A stretch of 64,000 nt of DNA from Minisyncoccia bacterium (lineage in GTDB: Bacteria > Patescibacteriota > Minisyncoccia > Phycocordibacterales > UBA9973). The position numbers were made by a program, and so were the translations under genes. Below, one piece after another: positions 25,055-40,645 of the stretch. How positions within the stretch are numbered: the first letter of the stretch is position 1; every line of letters starts with the position of its first letter. The stretch is from positions 26,259 through 90,258 of the forward strand of contig JBAQFO010000009.1 of assembly GCA_049287305.1 (NCBI GenBank), written 5' to 3'. The notes under the pieces were generated by a model. It did not search any database. It worked only from the letters and a program-made list of their open reading frames with translations, and was not told where the DNA came from.

Positions 25055-25608
25055 CATGTTGTCTCCTATTACTAGAAGCATGGACTATATCATATCCATA
25101 TTCTGAAAATTCAGAACTTAGGACCAAGGCGCTTCGTCCGACCTTGCGTCGGACTACTCCACTAAGTGGATAGTCTCTACACCTTTTCTGACTTTGCGTC
25201 AGAACTTGGCTCGGGATTACCCCGCAAAAGGGTTTCCCCGAATTCACCTCGTTTTTCAATCTACTTTTCAATAGAAAGCTGCGTAATGCCTGCCTCGACT
25301 TCTCGATGGCAATTTGCACAAAGTAGAACACACTTATCAAGTTCAAGTCGTGTTTTTTCCCACGATCTTGTGTAGCCTTTATCTCCAATGCCGAAACTTT
25401 TTTCTGACCTATTGATATGGTGAAGCTCTAAAGCTCCAGCGCATTTCTTATAGCCACAAATTTGGCAGTGTCCACCTTTGTATTCGATAGACATGGATTT
25501 AACTTTTTTTCTTCTTTTGGCTACGGCTTTGATAAGCGCCTCTCTTCTGTCGACATACTTTCTGGTGTCTGGCATATATAACCATTATACCAAAAAAGTC
25601 TTTGTCTC
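25055..25608 (-). mobile_element. Group I intron (IC3-like, Azoarcus/cyanobacterial tRNA-intron type) carrying an HNH ORF
   Basis: The intron core contains AAGGTGTAGAGACTA (R/P7 element, near-identical to the Azoarcus tRNA-Ile intron) and GATATAGTCC (S/P7' element). The last intron nucleotide is G and the last exon-1 nucleotide is U. Confidence 0.65.
25261..25575 (-). CDS. HNH homing endonuclease encoded within the tRNA intron
   Basis: CQICGYKKC ... LELHHINRSEKSF ... CVLLCANCHRE: an HNH motif with Zn-binding cysteines. The ORF starts 30 nt inside the intron. Confidence 0.7.
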   Translation of the reverse strand: MPDTRKYVDRREALIKAVAKRRKKVKSMSIEYKGGHCQICGYKKCAGALELHHINRSEKSFGIGDKGYTRSWEKTRLELDKCVLLCANCHREVEAGITQLSIEK

Positions 25609-27582: not shown

Positions 27583-28617
27583 CTAGATTATTTTGAAGAA
27601 AAGACGAATTACGGGAAACAAAATGTAATCCCAAATTTGCGGCTTGAAACTCAGAGGGTCAAATAAAGTTGATTCATTTTTCCATCCTTCAATTATTCCT
27701 CGGAGCTTATCCACTGCTTTTTTTTCTTTAAAGAGTATCCCCACTTCGGAATTTAATTCAAAAGACAGAAAATCTAAATTATGGGACCCTAAAATTGCTT
27801 CCTCTTGGTCCACAATCATTGCTTTAGCATGGTTCATGCGGGGCAAGAGAAAAAAGTTAACGCCTAGCTTGGAAAGCTTAAACATAAAAAAGTAAGCCAC
27901 CCGGTCAGGAATGAAATGATTGCCTCTTTGAGGCACTAGCACTTCCACTCGGACCCCGCGGAGAACGGCCTGGTGGAGAATAGCGATAAACCAGTGTTTC
28001 GGCATAAAATATGGAGTAATTAAAACGATGCTGCTCTTGGCTTCATTGACTGTTTTTTTGTAAATTTTTTTCAGAGAATACCGCTGGCTTATCGGAAAAT
28101 TTTCTATCAGCCAAGTGCGTGTCTTGTTCAAAAATATTCTTCTATTCTGCGCAAGGATAAGCGGGTCTTTGCCGCCACAGTCAGCATATACTTTGGCGAA
28201 AGATGAAATAATAGCTAGCACGAGTTTTTTCCCTTTTACCTCCACTGCCAGGTCGTCCCACATACGAGCTACTTGGTGAAAATTAACTCCGCCGATAAAA
28301 GCCAGGCTTTCGTCCACTACAAGGATTTTTCTGTGAATCCTGTGCCTGAATCTGCTGAAGAAATGCACCTCAGTCCCGCTCTGCCGGAGGTCGGCAACGG
28401 CTTCCTTGCTAAGGAGAGAACTGCCGAAAGAGTCCAGCACTACCCTAACCCTTAGCCCTTTTTCCGATTTCTTTTTTAACAAGGTAATAAAATCAAAACG
28501 GCGCATGTCGTCATTGAAAATATACATCTCTAAATATACGGATTCTTTCGCGTCTTTTATTGCTCCATACATAGCTTGCCACGTGGAGTAAGAACTGGCA
28601 AAAAATTTATAACGCAT
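27583..28617 (-). CDS. Phospholipase D / cardiolipin synthase-family protein
   Basis: Two HKD motifs: HRKILVVDESLAFIGGVNF and HAKAMIVDQEEAILGSHNLD. Confidence 0.75.
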   Translation of the reverse strand: MRYKFFASSYSTWQAMYGAIKDAKESVYLEMYIFNDDMRRFDFITLLKKKSEKGLRVRVVLDSFGSSLLSKEAVADLRQSGTEVHFFSRFRHRIHRKILVVDESLAFIGGVNFHQVARMWDDLAVEVKGKKLVLAIISSFAKVYADCGGKDPLILAQNRRIFLNKTRTWLIENFPISQRYSLKKIYKKTVNEAKSSIVLITPYFMPKHWFIAILHQAVLRGVRVEVLVPQRGNHFIPDRVAYFFMFKLSKLGVNFFLLPRMNHAKAMIVDQEEAILGSHNLDFLSFELNSEVGILFKEKKAVDKLRGIIEGWKNESTLFDPLSFKPQIWDYILFPVIRLFFKII

Positions 28618-29060: not shown

Positions 29061-30260
29061 ATGAGTAATACATTTTTAAATCCTTTTAGACCAGGTGCGG
29101 GTCAACCTCCTCCATATTTAGCAGGGCGTGAGAAAGAAAAAGAAGCCTTTGAAAAATTGCTTGCACAAGATGTTGTCATTAAAAATATGATTTTAACAGG
29201 ATTAAGAGGAACAGGCAAAACAGCTCTACTAGAAACTTTGAAACCTGTCGCACTTGCTAATAAATGGCTTTGGGCTGGAGCTGACCTTTCAGAATCAGCA
29301 AGCGTGTCAGAGAATGCGATTGCAATTAGATTGTTGACCGACCTTTCGGTTGTAACATCTCAATTATTAAAAGGAACAAAGGAGAAAGCTGGTTTTTCTT
29401 CAGGAGAAGAAAAAGTTTCTATAGATTATGCAAGTTTGGTTCAATATTATACAAGTCAACCTGGACTTGTTTCTGATAAATTAAAAGCAACGTTAGAATA
29501 TATTTGGTCTTACATAAAGGATGCACCAAGTATAAAAGGAATTGTTTTTGCTTATGACGAAGCTCAAAACATGAGTGATAGTGCAAAAGATAAAGAATAT
29601 CCTCTGTCTGTATTATTAGAAGTTTTTCAATCATTACAAAGAAAAAACTATCCTTTCCTTTTAGTGCTTGTTGGTCTTCCAACTTTATTTCCAAAATTAG
29701 TTGATGCAAGAACATATTCAGAAAGAATGTTTAACGTTATTGAATTAAAAAGTTTATCTCCTTCTGATAGTAAAGATGCAATAGTTAAACCGACCCAAAA
29801 ATCTGGCTGCCCTGTTACATTTGATGATAATTCAGTTACTTTGATAACAAAAGAATCAGGAGGATATCCTTATTTTATACAATTTGTTTGTAGGGAAACT
29901 TTCGATAGCTGGATAGCACAAATAGCACAAAATATTGAAAAGCCAAGTGTTCCACTCACAGAAATAGTAGCTAAATTGGATACAGAGTTTTTTGCTGCAA
30001 GATGGAATCGTGCATCAGACCGCGAAAGAGAACTTCTGTCTGTAATAGCATCACTCGAAAATTGTCAGGAAGAATTTACTATAAAAGAAGTAGCCGAACA
30101 ATCAAAAAAGGTTTCAGAAAAACCTATAACGGATAACCAAATTAACCAAATGTTTGTAAATTTAGCAAGTGATGGTTTTATATATCGAACTAGATATGGT
30201 AAATATACATTTGGTATTCCACTTTTAGGTGAATATATCAAACGACAGGAGATACTTTAG
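29061..30260 (+). CDS. AAA+ ATPase of the archaeal-ATPase (PF01637-like) family
   Basis: N-terminal NPFRPGAGQPPPYLAGREKE signature and a Walker A GLRGTGKT. Confidence 0.6.
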   Translation: MSNTFLNPFRPGAGQPPPYLAGREKEKEAFEKLLAQDVVIKNMILTGLRGTGKTALLETLKPVALANKWLWAGADLSESASVSENAIAIRLLTDLSVVTSQLLKGTKEKAGFSSGEEKVSIDYASLVQYYTSQPGLVSDKLKATLEYIWSYIKDAPSIKGIVFAYDEAQNMSDSAKDKEYPLSVLLEVFQSLQRKNYPFLLVLVGLPTLFPKLVDARTYSERMFNVIELKSLSPSDSKDAIVKPTQKSGCPVTFDDNSVTLITKESGGYPYFIQFVCRETFDSWIAQIAQNIEKPSVPLTEIVAKLDTEFFAARWNRASDRERELLSVIASLENCQEEFTIKEVAEQSKKVSEKPITDNQINQMFVNLASDGFIYRTRYGKYTFGIPLLGEYIKRQEIL

Positions 30261-30402: not shown

Positions 30403-30624
30403 CACTCATCCTTCTTGACATGTTTGATAAATAGACCAAATAATGTAATAATTTTGCTATAACTTAATAAAAGTAGCCTAAACCTTTAGAAATAGAGGCA
30501 TGGTGAATAGACCCGTGAAGGTTAAAGAACTCCTAGTCAGAGTTCGCCTTCACGGGCTGTATGTGGAAACACATATATCTGATTAGGAGCTTTTTGCGTT
30601 TTAACCCTATTAACAAAAAATTAT

Positions 30625-33009: not shown

Positions 33010-34782
33010 ATGCAAAAAGCAGTCATTTATTGCCGAGTATCCTCTATTAAGCAAAGCACAGAAGGACACGGACTAGATTCGCAGGAGCATCGTTGTAGAG
33101 AGTATGCAAAACAAAAGGGCTATGAAGTTGTAAAAGTCTTCAGAGATAGTTTCACAGGCGGTGGAGACTTTCTAAATAGACCAGCAATGTCTTCTTTGCT
33201 TGGTTATCTCGATAAAGAACCTGCAACGAACTTTGTAGTTGTCTTTGACGATTTAAAAAGACTTGCTCGCGATACTGTTTTTCATCTCAAATTAAGAAGG
33301 GAATTTACTGCTAGAGGAGCAAAAGTAGAATGCTTAAACTTTACTTTTGAAGAAACTCCCGAAGGACAATTTATTGAAACCATTTTGGCTTCACAGGGAG
33401 AGCTAGAAAGAAAACAAAATCAAAGACAAGTAATTCAGAAAATGAAAGCCCGTCTTGAAAATGGATATTGGACTTTAGTTGCTCCTGTCGGGTATAGAAT
33501 GATAAAAAATCCTATTCATGGAAAAATACTAACAAGAGTTGAACCAGAAGCTAGTATTGCAAAGGAAGCCCTTGAAGGATTTGCCAGTGGAAGATTTGAA
33601 AATCAGGTTGAAGTCCAAAGTTTCTTACAATCTAAAAAGTTTCGTGGGATTACAAAATACAATTTAAGTTTGGTTAAAAGATTACTTACAAGGTCAGTAT
33701 ATGCTGGCTTTGTAGAATATGAAAAGTGGAATGTAAGTAGAAGGGTTGGTCATCATGAGCCGATAATTAGTTCTGATACATTTCAACAGATTCAGGATAA
33801 ACTAAATGGAAAAATAAAAATCTACTCAAGAAAAGACAATAACAAGGAATTTCCTTTGAGGGGTTTTATTTTATGTTTAGACTGTTGTAAACCCATGACA
33901 GCAAGTTGGACTACTGGCAGAAGTGCTAAACATCCTTATTATCATTGTAAAACAAGAGGATGTCAGCTTAAGGGTAAAAGTATAAAGAGAAAGGAAATGG
34001 AGGATAGATTTGAGGATATACTACGCTCCATAAAGCCTAAAGCGAAGACCTTGAATCTTACAAAAGAAATTCTACTTGATATTTGGAATAAGAGACTTGC
34101 CGATGTAGATAACCTTAAAAAGAATCATGAAAATAATTTAGATGAAGTTCGTGCAAAGATAAGAATGTTTTTAGACAGATTATCTCAAACTAAAAATCCT
34201 AGCTTGATAAAAACTTACGAAAAGGAAATTGAAAAACTCACAAATGAGGAGCAAGTTTTAGAAAATCAGAGCCAAGTCATGCGAGGTACCAAGCCAGATT
34301 TTGGAACCGCCCTTGATATTACTTTTGATTTTCTAAAAAATCCTTATGCTTATTGGGCAAAAGATGATTTGAAGTCAAAGCATTTAGTTTTGAAATTGGT
34401 TTTTTCCGATAGATTAACTTATGAAAGAGGAGTAGGGTTTCGAACCGCTAATCTAGCTTTACCATTAAGGGTATTTGAGTTAAACGAACTAGGTGATTCT
34501 TCTGATGTGGTGTCATTATATCATTTGCTCGAACTTTTTTTGAGCGAGAATGAATCGTCCCGCCACTGCCTCGCAAAGCCTCGGCAACCCCGAAAGAAAA
34601 ACACTCCTTGCATTTCTGATTTGGCGGGGGTGAAATTTCTTTTGGAAAAGGAAAGGGTGTTTTTCTTTCGGGGTTCTGCCTTCCAAGTATTCAGGCAGGT
34701 GGCGGAACAATGCGGACGAAGTTTTGCAAAAACTATTTTTTGGGGAAAGGATTTTGCAAAACTTCGGCTCATTTGTTTTTGA
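33010..34782 (+). CDS. Large serine recombinase (resolvase catalytic domain + recombinase domain + zinc ribbon)
   Basis: AVIYCRVSSIKQ catalytic-serine motif, a VFDDLKRLARD motif and a CLDCCKPMT...YYHCKTRGC zinc ribbon. The last ~90 codons read into inverted repeat IR1-L, so the true stop is uncertain. Confidence 0.8.
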   Translation: MQKAVIYCRVSSIKQSTEGHGLDSQEHRCREYAKQKGYEVVKVFRDSFTGGGDFLNRPAMSSLLGYLDKEPATNFVVVFDDLKRLARDTVFHLKLRREFTARGAKVECLNFTFEETPEGQFIETILASQGELERKQNQRQVIQKMKARLENGYWTLVAPVGYRMIKNPIHGKILTRVEPEASIAKEALEGFASGRFENQVEVQSFLQSKKFRGITKYNLSLVKRLLTRSVYAGFVEYEKWNVSRRVGHHEPIISSDTFQQIQDKLNGKIKIYSRKDNNKEFPLRGFILCLDCCKPMTASWTTGRSAKHPYYHCKTRGCQLKGKSIKRKEMEDRFEDILRSIKPKAKTLNLTKEILLDIWNKRLADVDNLKKNHENNLDEVRAKIRMFLDRLSQTKNPSLIKTYEKEIEKLTNEEQVLENQSQVMRGTKPDFGTALDITFDFLKNPYAYWAKDDLKSKHLVLKLVFSDRLTYERGVGFRTANLALPLRVFELNELGDSSDVVSLYHLLELFLSENESSRHCLAKPRQPRKKNTPCISDLAGVKFLLEKERVFFFRGSAFQVFRQVAEQCGRSFAKTIFWGKDFAKLRLICF

Positions 34783-34872
34783 ATTCGGAAGTCGCAAATG
34801 GAAAAGGAGGGGTTTGGGGAGGAATTTTCCATTTGCTCCTCTTTTTGTTTTGGCGAAATTCGGGGCGGACAA
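34507..34872. repeat. IR1-L: 366-bp inverted repeat, ~96% identical to 38536-38901
   Basis: A direct comparison of this segment with the reverse complement of 38536-38901 shows about 15 mismatches over 366 bp. It also contains an internal 20-bp palindrome pair (ccccgaaagaaaaacac / gtgtttttctttcgggg). Confidence 0.85.
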
Positions 34873-34899: not shown

Positions 34900-35052
34900 T
34901 TACTTTTTTCGCAAATCTGCCCAAAGTGCCATTGCCACTAAGACCAAGAATATTACCACTTCCAACCAGTTTTGTTTCTGGACAGCTTCAACAACAGCTG
35001 AGCCAAAAAGAATTACTATTACCGCTAAACTTGTGAATTTTAGGTCTTTCAT
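34900..35052 (-). CDS. Small single-TM protein
   Basis: About 50 aa from the Met of MKDLKFTSLAVIVILFG. It is the last gene of the 7-gene minus-strand operon. Confidence 0.3.
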   Translation of the reverse strand: MKDLKFTSLAVIVILFGSAVVEAVQKQNWLEVVIFLVLVAMALWADLRKK

Positions 35053-35057
35053 GTGAT

Positions 35058-35233
35058 TATTGATTGCGTTTCTGCAATGCCAGCATGCCATAAGCTATGA
35101 TTGCTCCGGAAACTGTAGCCGTGAGAGTGATTTGCGGAAGATTAATCGGCATCTGTAGAATCCAGTATCCTAGCAAACCGACTGCGGATATAATCACAAA
35201 CTCAAGAACAAAGTACTGTAAGAATTTTTTCAT
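35058..35233 (-). CDS. Small two-TM protein (58 aa; not in the ORF track)
   Basis: Translation is MKKFLQYFVLEFVIISAVGLLGYWILQMPINLPQITLTATVSGAIIAYGMLALQKRNQ. It is hydrophobic and co-directional with the operon. Confidence 0.3.
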
Positions 35234-35270
35234 AAGATGATTATAACTAATTTATTTTTTGGCGACGACA

Positions 35271-35846
35271 TTAAACTAAATGATACCACTTTCGCTCTGA
35301 TATTTTTCTTAATTTATCTACTGCTGGTGTATTGTACAGGTATTCAGTACTTTTCGAAATATCCGTAAGAATCCCTACTGTAATTTGTTCGTTTGGATTT
35401 GGAACTTGCACAAGCTGTGCAAGTTGTTGTTGAGTTAATCCTTGTGGTAAATTCTGTGCCGTTGCTGTTGAGATAGGCACCGCCTCAAATCTTTGATTTA
35501 ATTTTTGACTAGAACGTTCAGCTATTAAAAAATCGATATACGTTGCTTGCGAGTAAAATCTGCTAATCATGTCAATTTCAGTTTCTTTCAAATCCTTGAT
35601 AAAAAGATGTATGTTGTCGTTCCAACTGTTGGTTGGCAGTAATTTTGATGACAAGGAGTACCCGCGTGTACCATGCTCCGAATTTCTGATCTGTTGCTCC
35701 GCGTAGCGGATTTCTTGAAGTATTAAACTAGCCGCATCTCTCCTTTTGTCCACTCTTGCTTTTATATAAAGGTAAATAGCTAAAAAGCCAACAACAAATG
35801 TTACCACCCCGATATTGTCATTTAAGAATTGAAAAATAATCATCAT
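35271..35846 (-). CDS. Hypothetical protein with an N-terminal TM anchor
   Basis: 191 aa. Its start is 2 nt after the upstream gene, so it is probably translationally coupled. Confidence 0.4.
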   Translation of the reverse strand: MMIIFQFLNDNIGVVTFVVGFLAIYLYIKARVDKRRDAASLILQEIRYAEQQIRNSEHGTRGYSLSSKLLPTNSWNDNIHLFIKDLKETEIDMISRFYSQATYIDFLIAERSSQKLNQRFEAVPISTATAQNLPQGLTQQQLAQLVQVPNPNEQITVGILTDISKSTEYLYNTPAVDKLRKISERKWYHLV

Positions 35847-35848
35847 AA

Positions 35849-36775
35849 TTACTCTGTTCTTAACTCCTTTTGCCTAATCCACTTCGGACCATCAGGAGTT
35901 AGTACTAAAACATCAATTGGGCCACCTACGCCCGGCATGTCACCCGGGTCAGCTTGAATGCCGTCTGAAAAACGTTGAATCGCTGATGTTGTCTGTATCG
36001 CAAGCACAGAAAAATCGATTGCGTCTTGGAGGGGCATTGAGCCCCAGTTGATAGCATATTCAAGACTATTCAATTGTTTTTCAATTTCGGCTTGACCTTT
36101 TGATTTGATAGCTTCGTTTACAAATGGTGTATTAAAAATTCGCGGGTCCCATCCTTTGACAATTCGAGACACAACGTCAGTCTGCCCAATCCAATTGGCG
36201 CCGTACTCCATTCCACGTTGGTTGCTGTCGCGCCTTTTTACATTCTCGCCAGGGACATAAACATTATAAACTTCGTGCGAGCCGTCGATGTTATAGCCAG
36301 CAACAAACAAAACTAGCCCGTCTATACCTCCAGCACCATCCTTTATATTTCCCGCTTTGTCCTTGATTTTGAACTTGACATTGTATTGTTCCTTTTTGAT
36401 CTCCACAATTTCAAACCCTTGCTTTGTAAAATTATCTTTTATTTGATCCGGCAACTTATCTAGTTGTTCTTGCCAATTTAATTTTTTATCAAATAGAAAA
36501 TGTAATTTGTCCGCAACTTCTTTGACTGAAAGTTTATCAACCTCCACTTCTCTCTTAAACTGCTCAATAAACTTGCTGATATTTTTTGGTATTCCATTCT
36601 CTTGCAAAAATGCAAGTCCGGTAGTTGCAACGCCGATTCGATTATTAATTAAAAATAGTTTTGATGCAGAATCAGAGCCAATTCTAGAAACACCTTTTTG
36701 GTTGCGATAAGATTGACGGCTATCTGCCGCTAATATCATGCCCTCTGGAGTTGTTGTATTTATTGCTAAGCTCAT
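35849..36775 (-). CDS. Proteasome beta-subunit-like Ntn hydrolase (T1 family; HslV/Anbu-like), orphan
   Basis: MSLAIN|TTTPEGMILAADSRQS aligns with the Thermoplasma beta propeptide and TTTVGI...ATERR region (Thr1, Asp17). SKLFLINNRIGVATTGLA aligns with KKLFQIDTYTGMTIAGL (Lys33). GGIDGLVLFVAGYNIDG...VYVPG aligns with LLVGGID...SIDAAGG. The C-terminal AIDFSVLAIQTTSA...GGPIDVLVLTPDG aligns with VDLVIRAISAA...SGGMIDVAVITRKDG. Confidence 0.55.
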   Translation of the reverse strand: MSLAINTTTPEGMILAADSRQSYRNQKGVSRIGSDSASKLFLINNRIGVATTGLAFLQENGIPKNISKFIEQFKREVEVDKLSVKEVADKLHFLFDKKLNWQEQLDKLPDQIKDNFTKQGFEIVEIKKEQYNVKFKIKDKAGNIKDGAGGIDGLVLFVAGYNIDGSHEVYNVYVPGENVKRRDSNQRGMEYGANWIGQTDVVSRIVKGWDPRIFNTPFVNEAIKSKGQAEIEKQLNSLEYAINWGSMPLQDAIDFSVLAIQTTSAIQRFSDGIQADPGDMPGVGGPIDVLVLTPDGPKWIRQKELRTE

Positions 36776-36785
36776 AATTTAAAAA

Positions 36786-37385
36786 TTATTTTTCCCACAC
36801 GATATGCCCATTTATACCATGTTTTTCGTAAGTTTCCAAGACATCAGCACAAAATTTTATCAACTCTTCGTTCTTTTCACTTTTGGCTAATTCATAAAGA
36901 CGGATAAACATTTTCTTTCCCGTTTCGGTTTGCTTCAAATTCTTTTTGATAAAATTATGTTGTGCGCATAATGTCTGGCCGTTCTCAATCGTAGCTTCGC
37001 CGCCAAAATCTTTTGGCTTTATATGGTCAATGTGTAATTCAACGCCGTCTTTTTTGCCTCTACCGCAAATGACGCATTTGTATCCGTCTCTTTTAAGAAT
37101 TGCTTCTTTTTGTGAGGCTGTAAAATCCTCCAACTCTCTTTTATACGCTTTAGCCGGGTCATATTTATAAACTCCTTTAGAAATTTTGATCAAAAAGCCG
37201 CTTTGAGCTAGGTGGCGAATGGCTCTATCAGGGTCACGAAAAACATTTCCGGTCCTTTTCGTGTAAGTTGATACTACCCAATCAACAACTTCCGGATGTT
37301 TTATATCTCGGTTTGGATTTTTCTTAAAGAACTCAACGATGAGGTCTTTTTGAACATTATTATTTTTCTTGATGTCTTTTTTCAT
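36786..37385 (-). CDS. HNH nuclease (candidate restriction endonuclease of the R-M unit)
   Basis: CVICGRGKKDGVELHIDHIKPKDFGG...NGQTLCAQHN HNH motif with an N-terminal winged-helix-like region. It lies directly downstream of the methyltransferase. Confidence 0.6.
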   Translation of the reverse strand: MKKDIKKNNNVQKDLIVEFFKKNPNRDIKHPEVVDWVVSTYTKRTGNVFRDPDRAIRHLAQSGFLIKISKGVYKYDPAKAYKRELEDFTASQKEAILKRDGYKCVICGRGKKDGVELHIDHIKPKDFGGEATIENGQTLCAQHNFIKKNLKQTETGKKMFIRLYELAKSEKNEELIKFCADVLETYEKHGINGHIVWEK

Positions 37386-37390
37386 ATTTT

Positions 37391-38218
37391 TTACATTAAA
37401 CTTGATTGATTTACTTTTGCTTCATTGCGTAAGCGGTCTATCGCTATGTCGCAATACTTTTCATCAATATCAATTCCGATTCCTTTTCTGCCATGCAAAT
37501 AAGAGGCAATCAGCGTTGAACCGCTACCCAAAAATGGATCTAAAACAGTATCGCCAACAAAACTAAATAATTTTATACATCGTCTCGGTAATTCAATGGG
37601 AAATGGCGCAGGATGTCCGCCCGCACCTTTTTTACTTTGGCCGTTGAATGTCCAAACTCCATTTGTCCAATCCATGAATTCTTTTTTTGTAATATCATTT
37701 ACCCTACTTGCACCAGTTTTCTTCCAACTGTCTTTATACAAAACTAAAATCAATTCAACCGGAGCGATAACATACGGGGCGGAGGCGGACATAAACGAAC
37801 CCCAAGCGGTACGACGAGATATATTTCCCTCGTTCCAAATAATTGTTGAGTGATATTTCCAGCCAATGTCTTTTGCAATTTTTGTAATATCCGCACCAAC
37901 TGATTTTTGCCCACCTTTATTTTTATCAAGTGGAATGTTAAGCAAAAATCGCCCTTCATTTTTTGATAATTCAAAACATTTTTTGATCCATTTTTGAGTA
38001 AATTCCAAATAATCTTCGTACGTTAAATCGTCAGCGTGAGAATTGTAATGAATATCAACATTGTAAGGTGGCGAGGTAACAATCAAATCAATTGAATTAT
38101 TTGGAATTGCAGAAATTTTCAAAATGTCATCTTTGTATATCAAAATATTCTCCGCTTCAAAATGTGGAGCGTTAGTCTTTTTTTCTTTTGTATTTTTTGC
38201 GGTTATGGTATTTAACAT
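37391..38218 (-). CDS. DNA methyltransferase (beta-class N4-cytosine/N6-adenine)
   Basis: Motif IV SPPY (LIVTSPPYNV) precedes motif I (VLDPFLGSGST), which is the beta-class order. Confidence 0.8.
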   Translation of the reverse strand: MLNTITAKNTKEKKTNAPHFEAENILIYKDDILKISAIPNNSIDLIVTSPPYNVDIHYNSHADDLTYEDYLEFTQKWIKKCFELSKNEGRFLLNIPLDKNKGGQKSVGADITKIAKDIGWKYHSTIIWNEGNISRRTAWGSFMSASAPYVIAPVELILVLYKDSWKKTGASRVNDITKKEFMDWTNGVWTFNGQSKKGAGGHPAPFPIELPRRCIKLFSFVGDTVLDPFLGSGSTLIASYLHGRKGIGIDIDEKYCDIAIDRLRNEAKVNQSSLM

Positions 38219-38222
38219 ATTT

Positions 38223-38423
38223 TTATTTAAACAATTCTGCCGTAGAAACGCCGAGTGCTTTTGCTATCTTATCTAGTGTATCAACAGTAGGGTTTGGACT
38301 TTCACCAGTCTCTATTTTAACGACAGTATTCAAAGCAATATCAGCATCTTTCGAGAGGCGATCTTGGGAAATGCCTTTTTTCTGTCTTAATTTGCGGATG
38401 TTTTCGCTAACGGTATTTGCCAT
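38223..38423 (-). CDS. HTH XRE-family regulator (R-M controller C-protein-like)
   Basis: 66-aa helix-turn-helix protein (IRKLRQKKGISQDRLSKDADIALNTVVKIETGE). It is the first gene of the operon, 4 nt upstream of the methyltransferase. Confidence 0.65.
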   Translation of the reverse strand: MANTVSENIRKLRQKKGISQDRLSKDADIALNTVVKIETGESPNPTVDTLDKIAKALGVSTAELFK

Positions 38424-38535
38424 AATGTTTTGACTTTGATAAACTACTATAATACACTACTTATGATATACTTATCTCAACTGGTGTAATTCAATGATAG
38501 CAAAAACTATGAAAACAATCAATCTTAATCTTAAC

Positions 38536-38901
38536 TTGTCCGCCCCGAATTCCCCCAAAACAAAAAGAGGAGCAAATGGAAAATTCCTCCCCAAACCCCT
38601 CCTTTTCCATTTGCGACATCCGAATTCAAAAAAGATTAGCCGAGTGTTTTGCCAAATCCTTTCCCCAAAAAATAGTTTTGCCAAAACTTCGTCCGCATTG
38701 TTCCGCCACCTGCCTGAATACTTGGAAGGCAGAACCCCGAAAGAAAAACACCCTTTCCTTTTCCAAAAGAAATTTCACCCCCGCCAAATCAAGAAAGCAA
38801 GGAGTGTTTTTCTTTCGGGGTTGCCGAGGCTCTGCGAGGCAGTGGCGGGACGATTCATTCTCGCTCAAAAAAAGTTCGAGCAAATGATATAATGACACCA
38901 C
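38536..38901. repeat. IR1-R: 366-bp inverted repeat partner of 34507-34872
   Basis: See IR1-L. It abuts IR2-L, so the junction reads ...gacacca|ccaaacg. Confidence 0.85.
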
Positions 38902-39029
38902 CAAACGAAACTTGTTCGGAATTAAGAAAGCGGAGCGATTTTGCGGTAGCCAAAATCGCGCTATCATTTTTTTCAAAACCCTTTCCGCCTACGGCGGAAG
39001 CCGTGAATTCCCAAAGCTCCCCCCAATTG
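38898..39029. repeat. IR2-L: ~132-bp inverted repeat partner of 40441-40575
   Basis: The reverse complement of 40441-40575 matches with only a few mismatches. The outer end begins ccacca. Confidence 0.8.
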
Positions 39030-39034
39030 AAATC

Positions 39035-40639
39035 ATGAAAGACCTCAAACCAAAATATTTTCTCTACGCTCGTAAGAGTACAGAAGACGATGACCACCAA
39101 ATAATGTCTATTGAGGCACAGCTTTTTGAATTACATGAATACGCGCGTAGAGAAAATCTTGAAATTCTTGAGGAATTTCAAGAGTCGAAAAGCGCAAAGA
39201 AACCGGGTCGTGAACTATTTAACGAAATGATGGCCCGCATTGAGAAAATGGACGGCGTAGGTATCCTCGCGTGGCATCCTGACCGTCTTGCTCGCAATAG
39301 TGTTGACGGCGGGCGCATCATTTACGCAGTAGACACGACCAAAATAGTTTCTTTGCGTTTTCCGACATTTTGGTTTGAGCCAACTCCGCAAGGGAAATTT
39401 ATGTTGCAGGTGGCGTTCGGACAGAGTAAATATTATTCCGACAATCTTGTTGAGAATATTACTCGTGGTATCCGCCAAAAAGTCCGTCGAGGCGAGTGGT
39501 TGGTGCGCGCTCCCTTTGGCTATGTGAATAATCCGAAAACGAGAAATATTGAACCTCACCCGACTAAATCTCGCATTGTAGTAAAAGCGTTTGAAGAATA
39601 CGCCAAAGGGACGCACACCCTCGGCACTATCGCCGACTTTTTGGCGGATCACGGCGTGAGTACGAAGGGAACGCCACCTGCCAAAGCTTCCGTCGCTCGT
39701 ATGCTCTCCAATCGTGTCTATCTCGGTTTTACTTTTCACAAAGGCGAGTATTACGACGGAAGCTTTGCGCCAATTATTTCTCCGACACTGTTTGAAGCAG
39801 TCCAAAAAATGCTTGCGAAAAAATCTCGTCCTCGCGTGCAAAAAGTGCCAAACCATTTTCCCTTTGCACAATTTGCTCGGTGCGGAGAGTGCGGAAGTAT
39901 GATTACGGCTCAATATGCGACAAATCGTTTTGGCACAAAATATACTTACTATCGCTGTACCAAAAAGAAAGGTGTTTGTCGTCAGCCGTATCTATCTTCT
40001 TCCGCACTCATTTCGCAAGCAAAAAATCTGCTTCAATCAGTGTCGCTTCCTCTTTCAGAAATTGAGAACATGGAAAAACAAATTGACCTATGGGACAAAG
40101 AATCAATTTCAGAAAGAGGAAGTGCTGCCCAAAATCTTAAAACCAAACTTTCCGAAACGAAGGAGAAGCTGGACAAGCTCGTTTCCATTTATCTTGACGG
40201 CGATATTGAACGCGAGATTTACTTACAGCGAAAAGACCTTCTCCTTCGTCAGAAAGCAAAGTTTGAGGAAAGTTTTAAAGATTTTGGACAACAGAGAAAA
40301 AATTGGGTCGAACCCTTGCGGAGTTTCGTTTTGTCTTTGAGAGAAGCCGTTATTTTGGAAAAAAGCGAAAACTATTTCGCATGGAAAGAGTTTTTCCAAA
40401 AAATCGGCTCGAACCCTATTCTCAAAGACAAAACGCTTTCATGCAATTGGGGGGAGCTTTGGGAATTCACGGCTTCCGCCGTAGGCGGAAAGGGTTTTGA
40501 AAAAATTGACAGCGCGATTTTGGCTCCCGCAAAATCGCTCCGTTTTCTTAATTCCGACAATGTTTCGTTTGGTGGACCGTACAGGACTCGAACCTGCCAC
40601 CCCCTCATTGCAAATGAGGTGCTCTACCAGATGAGCTAA
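39035..40639 (+). CDS. Large serine recombinase (second copy, divergent from the first)
   Basis: YARKSTEDD catalytic-serine region, a WHPDRLARN motif, and a zinc ribbon CGECGS...YYRCTKKKGVC followed by coiled-coil-like sequence. The ORF reads through IR2-R and into the tRNA-Ala complement, so the real stop is uncertain. The ATG at 39035 is chosen as the start. Confidence 0.75.
   Translation: MKDLKPKYFLYARKSTEDDDHQIMSIEAQLFELHEYARRENLEILEEFQESKSAKKPGRELFNEMMARIEKMDGVGILAWHPDRLARNSVDGGRIIYAVDTTKIVSLRFPTFWFEPTPQGKFMLQVAFGQSKYYSDNLVENITRGIRQKVRRGEWLVRAPFGYVNNPKTRNIEPHPTKSRIVVKAFEEYAKGTHTLGTIADFLADHGVSTKGTPPAKASVARMLSNRVYLGFTFHKGEYYDGSFAPIISPTLFEAVQKMLAKKSRPRVQKVPNHFPFAQFARCGECGSMITAQYATNRFGTKYTYYRCTKKKGVCRQPYLSSSALISQAKNLLQSVSLPLSEIENMEKQIDLWDKESISERGSAAQNLKTKLSETKEKLDKLVSIYLDGDIEREIYLQRKDLLLRQKAKFEESFKDFGQQRKNWVEPLRSFVLSLREAVILEKSENYFAWKEFFQKIGSNPILKDKTLSCNWGELWEFTASAVGGKGFEKIDSAILAPAKSLRFLNSDNVSFGGPYRTRTCHPLIANEVLYQMS
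40441..40575. repeat. IR2-R: inverted repeat whose outer 6 bp are the CCACCA 3' terminus of tRNA-Ala
   Basis: Seen in sequence: ...gtttcgtttggtgg|accgtacagg, where the reverse complement of tggtgg is the discriminator A plus CCA of the tRNA. Confidence 0.8.
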
Positions 40640-40645
40640 CGGCCC
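40570..40645 (-). tRNA. tRNA-Ala(UGC), CCA encoded
   Basis: GGGCCGT-TA-GCTC-ATCTGGTA-GAGC-A-CCTCA-TTTGCAA-TGAGG-GGGTG-GCAGG-TTCGAGT-CCTGT-ACGGTCC-A-CCA. The G3:U70 Ala identity pair is present. Confidence 0.85.

Follow-up and report, generated by a model that had tools for sequence, protein, structure and literature searches.

The 64,000-nt DNA stretch analysed here (hereafter, the window; contig JBAQFO010000009.1) comes from a metagenome-assembled genome of the Patescibacteria (Minisyncoccia). At positions 34900-38423 of its minus strand lies a cassette in which a type II restriction-modification (R-M) operon is followed by genes for a predicted proteasome-like protease of 308 aa and a predicted membrane protein of 191 aa. 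This protease-partner pair recurs behind restriction operons at other loci and is the main subject of the present work. The block consists of seven co-directional open reading frames (ORFs), with junctions, in order, of 4, 5, 10, 2, and 37 nt and a 35-nt overlap between ORFs six and seven. The ORF coordinates and short junctions thus bear out the array of nearly overlapping minus-strand genes described in an earlier note on this DNA. The cassette comprises the following features:

38463-38522, minus strand: pair of promoter-like sites in the gap separating the helix-turn-helix (HTH) gene from the right repeat arm (consensus matches only; site number not above shuffle expectation)
38223-38423, minus strand: operon gene 1, HTH (Xre/C-protein-like) regulator (Pfam HTH_3, E=1e-15; PADLOC Control_protein, E=1e-11)
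37391-38218, minus strand: beta-class N4/N6 DNA methyltransferase (MTase; Pfam N6_N4_Mtase, E=5e-45; PADLOC MTase_II, E=1e-95)
36786-37385, minus strand: HNH nuclease, presumed restriction endonuclease (Pfam HNH, E=2e-9; PADLOC REase_II, E=6e-6)
35849-36775, minus strand: 308-aa proteasome-like hydrolase of the PMI type, predicted nucleophile Ser2 (fold prediction and catalytic register)
35271-35846, minus strand: 191-aa predicted single-pass membrane protein (alignments, AlphaFold2 model, and protease linkage)
35057-35233, minus strand: 58-aa hydrophobic ORF with two predicted transmembrane (TM) segments, cassette-specific (ORF list; called as a gene on metagenome contig L096)
34900-35091, minus strand: 63-aa hydrophobic ORF, 50 aa if read from Met14, cassette-specific (ORF list; a 50-aa gene is called on L096)

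Judged by sequence, the R-M part is an ordinary type II operon composed of a controller HTH, an N4/N6 MTase, and a putative HNH restriction nuclease. Equivalent operons at five other loci (L101, L103, L105, L133, and L167) also start with a homologous small HTH gene, and the MTase-HNH pair of the window was found again in L009 and L105. The earlier note had counted the two small TM peptides among the components of the system. Both ORFs are present and resemble two-TM peptides. However, no homologs were detected in any of the related loci, and the two were rejected as conserved components for this reason.

The 308-aa proteasome-like protein

The 308-aa protein matches an NCBI entry, hypothetical protein WAV15_01215, at 100% identity. 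Sequence-only evidence on its nature is marginal: searches of Pfam, NCBIfam, and the PDB with phmmer and hmmsearch gave marginal matches only, with Pfam Proteasome at E=7e-4, under the gathering score. Fold prediction was therefore needed. Structure prediction and fold search agree on a proteasome fold, that is, the alpha-beta-beta-alpha arrangement of N-terminal nucleophile (Ntn) hydrolases, in line with the identity first proposed from sequence blocks. The model adds one helix and three strands at about residues 101-150 and further helices at about residues 207-247. On sequence and modelling evidence, the protein belongs to the Ntn hydrolases, resembles proteasome beta, and keeps a complete set of predicted catalytic residues.

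The catalytic register differs from that first suggested, in which a 6-aa propeptide ended at Thr1 (MSLAIN/TTT) and was followed by Asp17 and Lys33. The 16-residue spacing from the invariant Asp18, equal to the Thr1-Asp17 spacing, lands on Ser2. A hidden Markov model (HMM) alignment with alpha subunits likewise places Ser2 at Thr1. Comparison with the Thermoplasma beta subunit in hhalign, of low probability, equates Ser2 with Thr1, Asp18 with Glu17, Lys39 with Lys33, and Gly53 with Gly47. Conservation was assessed in an alignment of 79 homologs from Patescibacteria, Atribacterota, Methanobacteriaceae, and other groups. Position 2, right behind the start codon, is Ser in 75/79 and Thr in 4/79. 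Asp18 and Gly53 are kept in all 79 sequences and Lys39 in 78, so the catalytic residues are near-invariant across homologs, as the earlier note had asked to see checked. By comparison, Thr7 is replaced by A, V, S, I, or M in 28/79. Since spacing, HMM alignment, hhalign, and conservation all give Ser2, Thr7 was rejected as the 'Thr1' residue. The proposed Asp and Lys do have equivalents, at Asp18 and Lys39.

Only Met1 precedes Ser2, and the protein has no propeptide. Self-activation through a 6-aa propeptide does not survive this change of register. Methionine aminopeptidase removes the initiator Met before Ser or Thr, and from this specificity we infer that Met removal would expose Ser2 as the nucleophile. 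Within the superfamily, propeptides are confined to beta and HslV (Fuchs et al., PMC8665760). The missing propeptide therefore excludes maturation of the beta-subunit type, not superfamily membership.

The family itself is not new, contrary to what had been implied. About 1,444 relatives of the 308-aa protein occur in the protein collection, none of them named, and the features fit the already catalogued PMI proteasome homologs, with PMI-3 as the best match by description (Fuchs, Alva, Lupas, PMC8665760). Shared traits are the Ntn fold, a set of Thr1/Ser1, Asp17, Lys33, and Gly47, and the lack of a propeptide. Large insertions follow H1/H2 and lie between H3/H4 in PMI-3, corresponding here to about residues 100-150 and 207-247. 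The distribution of PMI-3 over 'other bacteria' and Euryarchaeota and its unusually high conservation (28 sequences in nr90 vs 11 in nr70) also agree. The PMI-3 representative OGZ26396.1 was absent from the clusters looked up; its accession style is like that of OGN29936.1 (P0094, Rifle CPR dataset).

Relative to Anbu, the 20S beta subunit, and HslV, the 308-aa family has about 100 extra residues in two insertions, and insertions of this kind may prevent the stacking of rings (Fuchs et al., PMC8665760). It also uses a predicted Ser rather than Thr as nucleophile (75/79 sequences). A second proteasome-like (alpha) gene was sought across the window and none was found, as the earlier note had observed for the vicinity. 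Neighbouring genes show no conserved AAA+ unfoldase or Anbu-operon partner.

Fuchs et al. (PMC8665760) reported no informative genomic context for any new proteasome homolog family, PMI-3 included. Here, by contrast, part of the family shows a recurrent partner gene and R-M linkage. The protease context was surveyed in 81 loci from GTDB species representatives after removal of recognised duplicates. Two stable syntenies appear in Atribacterota: one has a TPR membrane protein upstream of the gene, and the other combines it with Lit, MurD, and a small membrane protein. Methanobacteriaceae carry the gene with HisF on one side and an OGG-like glycosylase on the other. In the rest of the loci, most of them from Patescibacteria, the commonest neighbours are N6_N4 MTases (9/150 genes), followed by LexA-type DNA-binding proteins (8/150). 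The proteasome-like gene follows an MTase and an HNH nuclease in L009 and stands right behind an MTase and a MutH-like nuclease in L010. The exact MTase-HNH-protease order repeats only among close relatives, namely L009 and the metagenome contigs L096-L098 and L105. The expectation that homologs would sit beside MTase and HNH genes in other genomes thus holds for some loci, whereas the homologs of Atribacterota and Methanobacteriaceae occupy housekeeping-type synteny.

Several other neighbours were recorded. The gene comes directly after a ParE toxin gene in L001. In L015 (4115-5982), an AbiLi/AbiLii (RloB) pair lies directly upstream and co-directional with it. Proteins of 124 aa with a LexA DNA-binding domain, devoid of the S24 self-cleavage domain, are encoded immediately upstream in L013 (5610-5981), L014 (2181-2552), and L016 (5611-5982), and longer LexA-domain proteins are found just upstream in L029, L034, and L063. 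These LexA-domain neighbours could control the protease or serve as its substrates.

The 191-aa partner family and its linkage to restriction operons

Relatives of the 191-aa protein number 353 in a word-indexed search and form 599 clusters at 50% identity in an exhaustive profile search. In the best 150 of these 599 clusters, all members are stand-alone proteins of at most 256 aa. The 191-aa protein starts with a TM helix and a strongly basic stretch; a conserved helical core comes next, then a P/Q-rich linker of variable sequence, and last a C-terminal motif that is again conserved. Alignments define the core as LILQEIRYAEQQIR ... LLPTNSW ... DLKETEID and the C-terminal motif as YNTPAVEKLRKISERKWY. 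Because the basic stretch follows the TM helix, the bulk of the protein is predicted to be cytoplasmic. The AlphaFold2 model is a 4-helix bundle with a predicted local distance difference test (pLDDT) score of 78.8 and a low-confidence linker at residues 128-141.

The association with proteases became clear from the reverse test, which covered 72 loci (a few duplicates included) with a 191-aa homolog and usable upstream DNA. The gene immediately upstream encodes a protease in 56/72. An SDH-type serine protease of the ClpP fold (PF01972) accounts for 44/72, a proteasome-like protein for 11/72, and a trypsin-like protease for 1/72. Junctions between protease and partner are mostly overlaps of at most 31 nt or gaps of at most about 25 nt; in four SDH cases the gap widens to 137-302 nt. 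The homolog closest to the window partner (L100, 81% identity) follows an SDH protease, which points to recent protease exchange; partners behind a proteasome-like gene are 64-69% identical. The 191-aa protein is thus a member of a protease-partner family that is indifferent to protease fold. In the single trypsin-like case (L124, 3257-3928), the 191-aa homolog follows a protease resembling the retron RT-protease and Lamassu LmuA protease domains, a third fold. The 191-aa protein was rejected as a universal partner of the proteasome-like gene, given its presence in 4/81 species-level loci. Genes downstream of the proteasome-like gene in L001 and L005 are not detectably homologous to it.

Linkage to R-M genes was examined in a non-redundant set of 28 partner loci, each with upstream DNA of 2.5 kb or more. 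A co-directional DNA MTase lies within 4 kb upstream in 13/28 loci vs 3/28 with an MTase downstream, the MTase seeds for this control having come from upstream genes. The usual order is HTH (when present), MTase, nuclease, protease, and partner, with tight junctions in L088, L103, L105, and L133. Genes ahead of the pair are of the following types:

N6_N4 MTase and HNH: the window and L105
EcoRI-like MTase and GmrSD_N/HNH: L101, L103, and L107
C5 MTase, R.HinP1I, and Vsr: L088
N6_N4 MTase and unknown genes: L100, L133, L136, and L167
841-aa MTase: L114

All five non-redundant loci in this set that combine a proteasome-like gene with the partner have an R-M operon directly upstream (5/5). In L088, a full LexA gene lies divergently upstream of the operon. 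From sequence comparison, the protease-partner pair behind R-M genes is a recurrent modular unit, seen with at least five unrelated R-M types, and appears undescribed. The earlier proposal that a protease and membrane proteins extend the R-M operon is therefore retained for the protease and the 191-aa protein, which recur behind varied R-M genes, and abandoned for the small TM ORFs, which are not conserved.

PADLOC (PADLOC-DB 2.0) gave no match for the 191-aa protein or the SDH proteases and only weak partial matches for the 308-aa protein (LmuA and PDC-S19, ~7e-4 over ~60 residues). With this negative outcome, a known defence system was rejected as the identity of the pair. Nothing relevant was found in the literature on PF01972 or proteasome homologs in defence. 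A viral origin of the pair was also rejected, because IMG/VR holds no relatives of either protein and PHROGs yielded nothing for the partner and a weak partial match for the 308-aa protein (E=2e-4, 26 residues).

Inverted repeats and serine recombinases around the cassettes

Repeat search and blastn agree that the operon lies between 366-bp inverted repeats, as described before. Their identity is 97% over adjacent pieces of 256 and 97 nt in the repeat search and 96% over 366-367 nt in blastn. The flanking features are as follows:

33010-34782, plus strand: large serine recombinase 1 (Pfam Resolvase 2e-26, Recombinase, Zn_ribbon_recom), reading into the left arm
34507-34872, no strand: left arm of the 366-bp inverted repeat, overlapping the 3' end of the recombinase 1 ORF (repeat search and blastn)
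38536-38901, no strand: right arm of the 366-bp inverted repeat (repeat search and blastn)
38898-39029, no strand: left arm of a second inverted repeat (132 nt, 95%)
39035-40639, plus strand: large serine recombinase 2 (Pfam Resolvase 4e-22, Recombinase 4e-13, Zn_ribbon_recom; probable ATG at 39035, listed ORF from TTG at 38912)
40444-40575, no strand: right arm of the second inverted repeat, overlapping the last 6 nt (CCACCA) of tRNA-Ala
40570-40645, minus strand: tRNA-Ala(TGC) (ARAGORN, Rfam), at the edge of the low-GC island by GC profile

The second repeat pair brackets serine recombinase 2, and GC content is below that of the surroundings over about 29-40.5 kb of the window. The ORF of recombinase 1 enters the left arm for about 90 codons with a tail that does not look protein-like, and the true C-terminus may be the repeat boundary. 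The recombinase 3' end overlaps the repeat arm in L090 as well.

Long, near-perfect inverted repeats also surround other cassettes that end with the 191-aa gene (289 nt in L090/L091, 170 nt in L103, at least 124 nt in L105, and at least 60 nt in L133), which together with the window makes six loci. At these loci, the repeat begins 1-53 nt after the partner stop codon; in the window it begins after about 400 nt, with the two small ORFs in between. L090 copies the layout of the window, with a recombinase, repeat, cassette, repeat, second repeat pair, and tRNA gene. Its second repeat pair encloses an HTH-MTase-nuclease set and a large serine recombinase. The cassette of L090 (1357-3914) and L091 (623-3183) carries a Replic_Relax gene and four small membrane proteins, not R-M genes, before the SDH protease and partner, which hints at a plasmid or mobilisable origin.

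Large serine recombinases adjoin the window cassette as well as L018, L063, L076, L079, L090, L094, L103, and L131. Boundary inverted repeats with an adjacent serine recombinase, a feature of invertible segments of the Hin/Gin type, are present in the window, L090, and L103, and the contigs of L105 and L133 are cut off where a flanking recombinase could be. No homology was detected between repeat arms of different loci, and none of the loci with a proteasome-like gene lacking the partner has such repeats. L090 and L091, the sole independent contig pair spanning a junction, have the same orientation, and contigs with the window cassette end at the repeats. An att-like direct repeat of the tRNA-Ala 3' end was sought and none was found. 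The recurrent combination of long inverted repeats with tRNA genes and large serine recombinases may be how such modules spread.

Further features of the window lie outside the cassette. A LOOT RNA (Rfam RF03000, 69.5 bits) occupies 30475-30587 on the plus strand in the low-GC island, flanked by an unannotated 340-aa ORF and by an AAA_16 ATPase (29061-30260) that strongly matches phrog_6841, a family of unknown function. A PLD-family (PLDc_2) protein is encoded at the island edge (27583-28617, minus strand). A group I catalytic intron (RF00028, 54.8 bits) lies at 25062-25321 on the minus strand, in a stretch without long ORFs.

Interpretation of the protease-partner pair

The favoured explanation is that a mobile type II R-M operon carries a conserved, exchangeable two-gene accessory pair at its 3' end. 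This pair would combine a protease from a fold family that is typically ring-forming with a membrane-anchored helical partner. It builds on what the analysis shows, namely the gene content, the protease fold, the catalytic register, a gene order that recurs across several R-M types and proteases, and the layout of repeats and recombinases. In the window, the PMI-type protease would act through Ser2, exposed by Met removal, with Asp18, Lys39, and Gly53. The partner would be held by one N-terminal TM helix, a topology that would place its bundle, P/Q-rich linker, and C-terminal motif in the cytoplasm within reach of the protease. Presumably co-transcribed and co-expressed with the R-M genes, the pair may back up restriction by working as a proteolytic switch at the membrane. 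In the most likely form, the two proteins would interact physically and, upon a putative trigger, the protease would cleave the partner or be released from it. Membrane function would then be compromised, with a defence phenotype resembling abortive infection. A membrane-linked proteolytic switch of this kind, argued from sequence and analogy, is a tentative proposal to which we give somewhat short of even chances.

Two lines of argument lead to this proposal. Order and strand are constant, R-M genes and pair share a single repeat-bounded unit, and R-M types and proteases both vary; these three facts argue for functional coupling over chance. In addition, the partner tolerates three protease folds and has a core, a flexible linker, and a conserved tail, which favours a role as protease substrate or latch at the membrane. 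Its modelled architecture, with a low-confidence variable linker at residues 128-141 between core and tail, fits a cleavable protein.

Known systems offer partial parallels. Activation would mirror that of bacterial gasdermins, which are triggered by varied neighbouring proteases. In gasdermin-protease operons (bioRxiv 10.1101/2021.06.07.447441), a membrane-acting protein is likewise encoded beside proteases of several unrelated folds, has a conserved core followed by a C-terminal segment removable by cleavage, and occurs in defence-type surroundings. The analogy is one of logic only, as the 191-aa protein is a predicted TM-anchored helical bundle and has no gasdermin fold. Genes other than R-M genes in or behind R-M operons have precedents in the PrrC anticodon nuclease of the EcoprrI locus and in RloA/RloB (AbiL-like), which provide a backup once restriction has been overcome (PMC12707154). 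The AbiLi/AbiLii pair directly before the proteasome-like gene of L015 recalls these loci. In contrast, the precedents involve a nuclease and type I loci, whereas the present cassettes hold a protease and a membrane protein in type II-like operons. A bolder version, which we consider rather unlikely, would make the pair a new modular anti-phage effector, of the abortive-infection or guard kind, that Patescibacteria have added to type II R-M. Proteases of three unrelated folds, a Ser1 proteasome homolog among them, would activate one membrane protein, and the whole, bounded by long inverted repeats, would be mobile or invertible through serine recombinases.

Several observations weigh against a proteolytic switch dedicated to defence. 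Contexts in Atribacterota and Methanobacteriaceae are of the housekeeping type, so the proteasome-like family is not defence-specific. A heat-shock operon in the Patescibacteria locus L005 (8001-9476), ordered hrcA-grpE-x-trypsin-like-[pair]-dnaK-dnaJ, holds a proteasome-like gene together with an unrelated 181-aa TM protein, and the SDH protease and 191-aa pair of L092 (3971-5591; also L093 and L117) lies inside a ribosomal-protein operon with L5 and S14 genes on either side. Only four of the 81 proteasome-like loci have the partner, even by profile, and in roughly half of the loci with the partner, R-M genes are missing from the vicinity. R-M genes are common in Patescibacteria islands, the 13/28 linkage is gauged against the downstream flank only, and the origin of the MTase seeds bears on the upstream-downstream asymmetry. 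No fusion (Rosetta-stone) proteins joining the 191-aa family to another protein occur among the best 150 of the 599 clusters. A fold search with the 191-aa model returned generic helical bundles only, with no pore-former or known toxin among the matches.

Many of these observations are what would be expected if the pair were unrelated cargo. The proteasome-like protein would then be a general proteostasis protease and the 191-aa protein a membrane adaptor for it or for the SDH protease, with R-M adjacency arising from packing into the variable, recombinase-associated islands of compact genomes. The housekeeping synteny, the heat-shock and ribosomal contexts (L005 and L092), the 77 of 81 loci in which the proteasome-like gene has no partner, the lack of viral carriage, and the earlier report of no informative context for the new homologs (Fuchs et al., PMC8665760) all suit such a role. 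Packing alone sits poorly with an order and strand (R-M, protease, and partner last) that do not change across two protease folds and at least five R-M types unrelated to one another, most junctions being short. Nor does it account well for the MTase asymmetry of 13 upstream vs 3 downstream, or for the single repeat pair that encloses both R-M genes and pair in the window, L103, L105, and L133. Cargo is an unlikely explanation.

A less probable alternative turns the protease on restriction itself. Its target would be the nuclease or the controller, degraded once the host DNA presents unmodified sites, for instance in a new host or upon DNA damage, and the partner would sequester or regulate the protease. 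Such control would explain why the protease gene is always directly behind the nuclease gene in the same operon. It would also suit cassettes that look mobile, for which establishment in naive hosts recurs, and the LexA-type neighbours, second commonest in the survey, and the divergent LexA of L088 hint at DNA-damage control. An analogy exists in the ClpXP-dependent restriction alleviation of EcoKI, and ClpXP is known to degrade HsdR in restriction alleviation (PMC4231737, PMC11109961). The title of a 2024 preprint names the proteolytic inactivation of restriction in Pseudomonas (10.1101/2024.10.21.619520). Proteolysis would be coupled to restriction in both settings. Nevertheless, the known cases involve type I enzymes and a housekeeping protease of the host whose gene is not linked, whereas the protease gene of the present cassettes belongs to the R-M operon and comes with a membrane partner. 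The need for a membrane anchor is left unexplained, and the pair also occurs without any R-M genes (the L090 cassette, L092, L094, L112, and others). We regard restriction control as improbable.

Proteolytic control of repressors is known from other systems, where ImmA cleaves ImmR and IrrE cleaves DdrO. Regulation of the element itself, in which the protease would cleave the cassette HTH or a LexA-type repressor, with the membrane protein as sensor, and so govern cassette expression or mobility rather than phage, is very unlikely: an HTH regulator does come first in most of these operons, S24-less LexA_DNA_bind proteins do stand immediately upstream of the proteasome-like gene (L013, L014, and L016), and large serine recombinases are adjacent at the nine loci named above, the window included, but R-M genes separate regulator from protease whereas known repressor-protease pairs are adjacent, the proteases have no sequence or fold relation to the ImmA/IrrE metalloproteases, and no evidence of inversion or excision was found.

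Whichever role applies, the cassette and its relatives provide the first usable genomic context for an orphan proteasome-homolog family, defined by a membrane partner, interchangeability with ClpP-like proteases, and a position at the tail of restriction operons. If the anti-phage effector reading were true, it would supply the first biological function for an orphan family of this kind. Patescibacteria are reported to be mostly without CRISPR-Cas (PMC12455944), and the cassette bears on how these genome-reduced bacteria layer their defences or keep restriction controlled.

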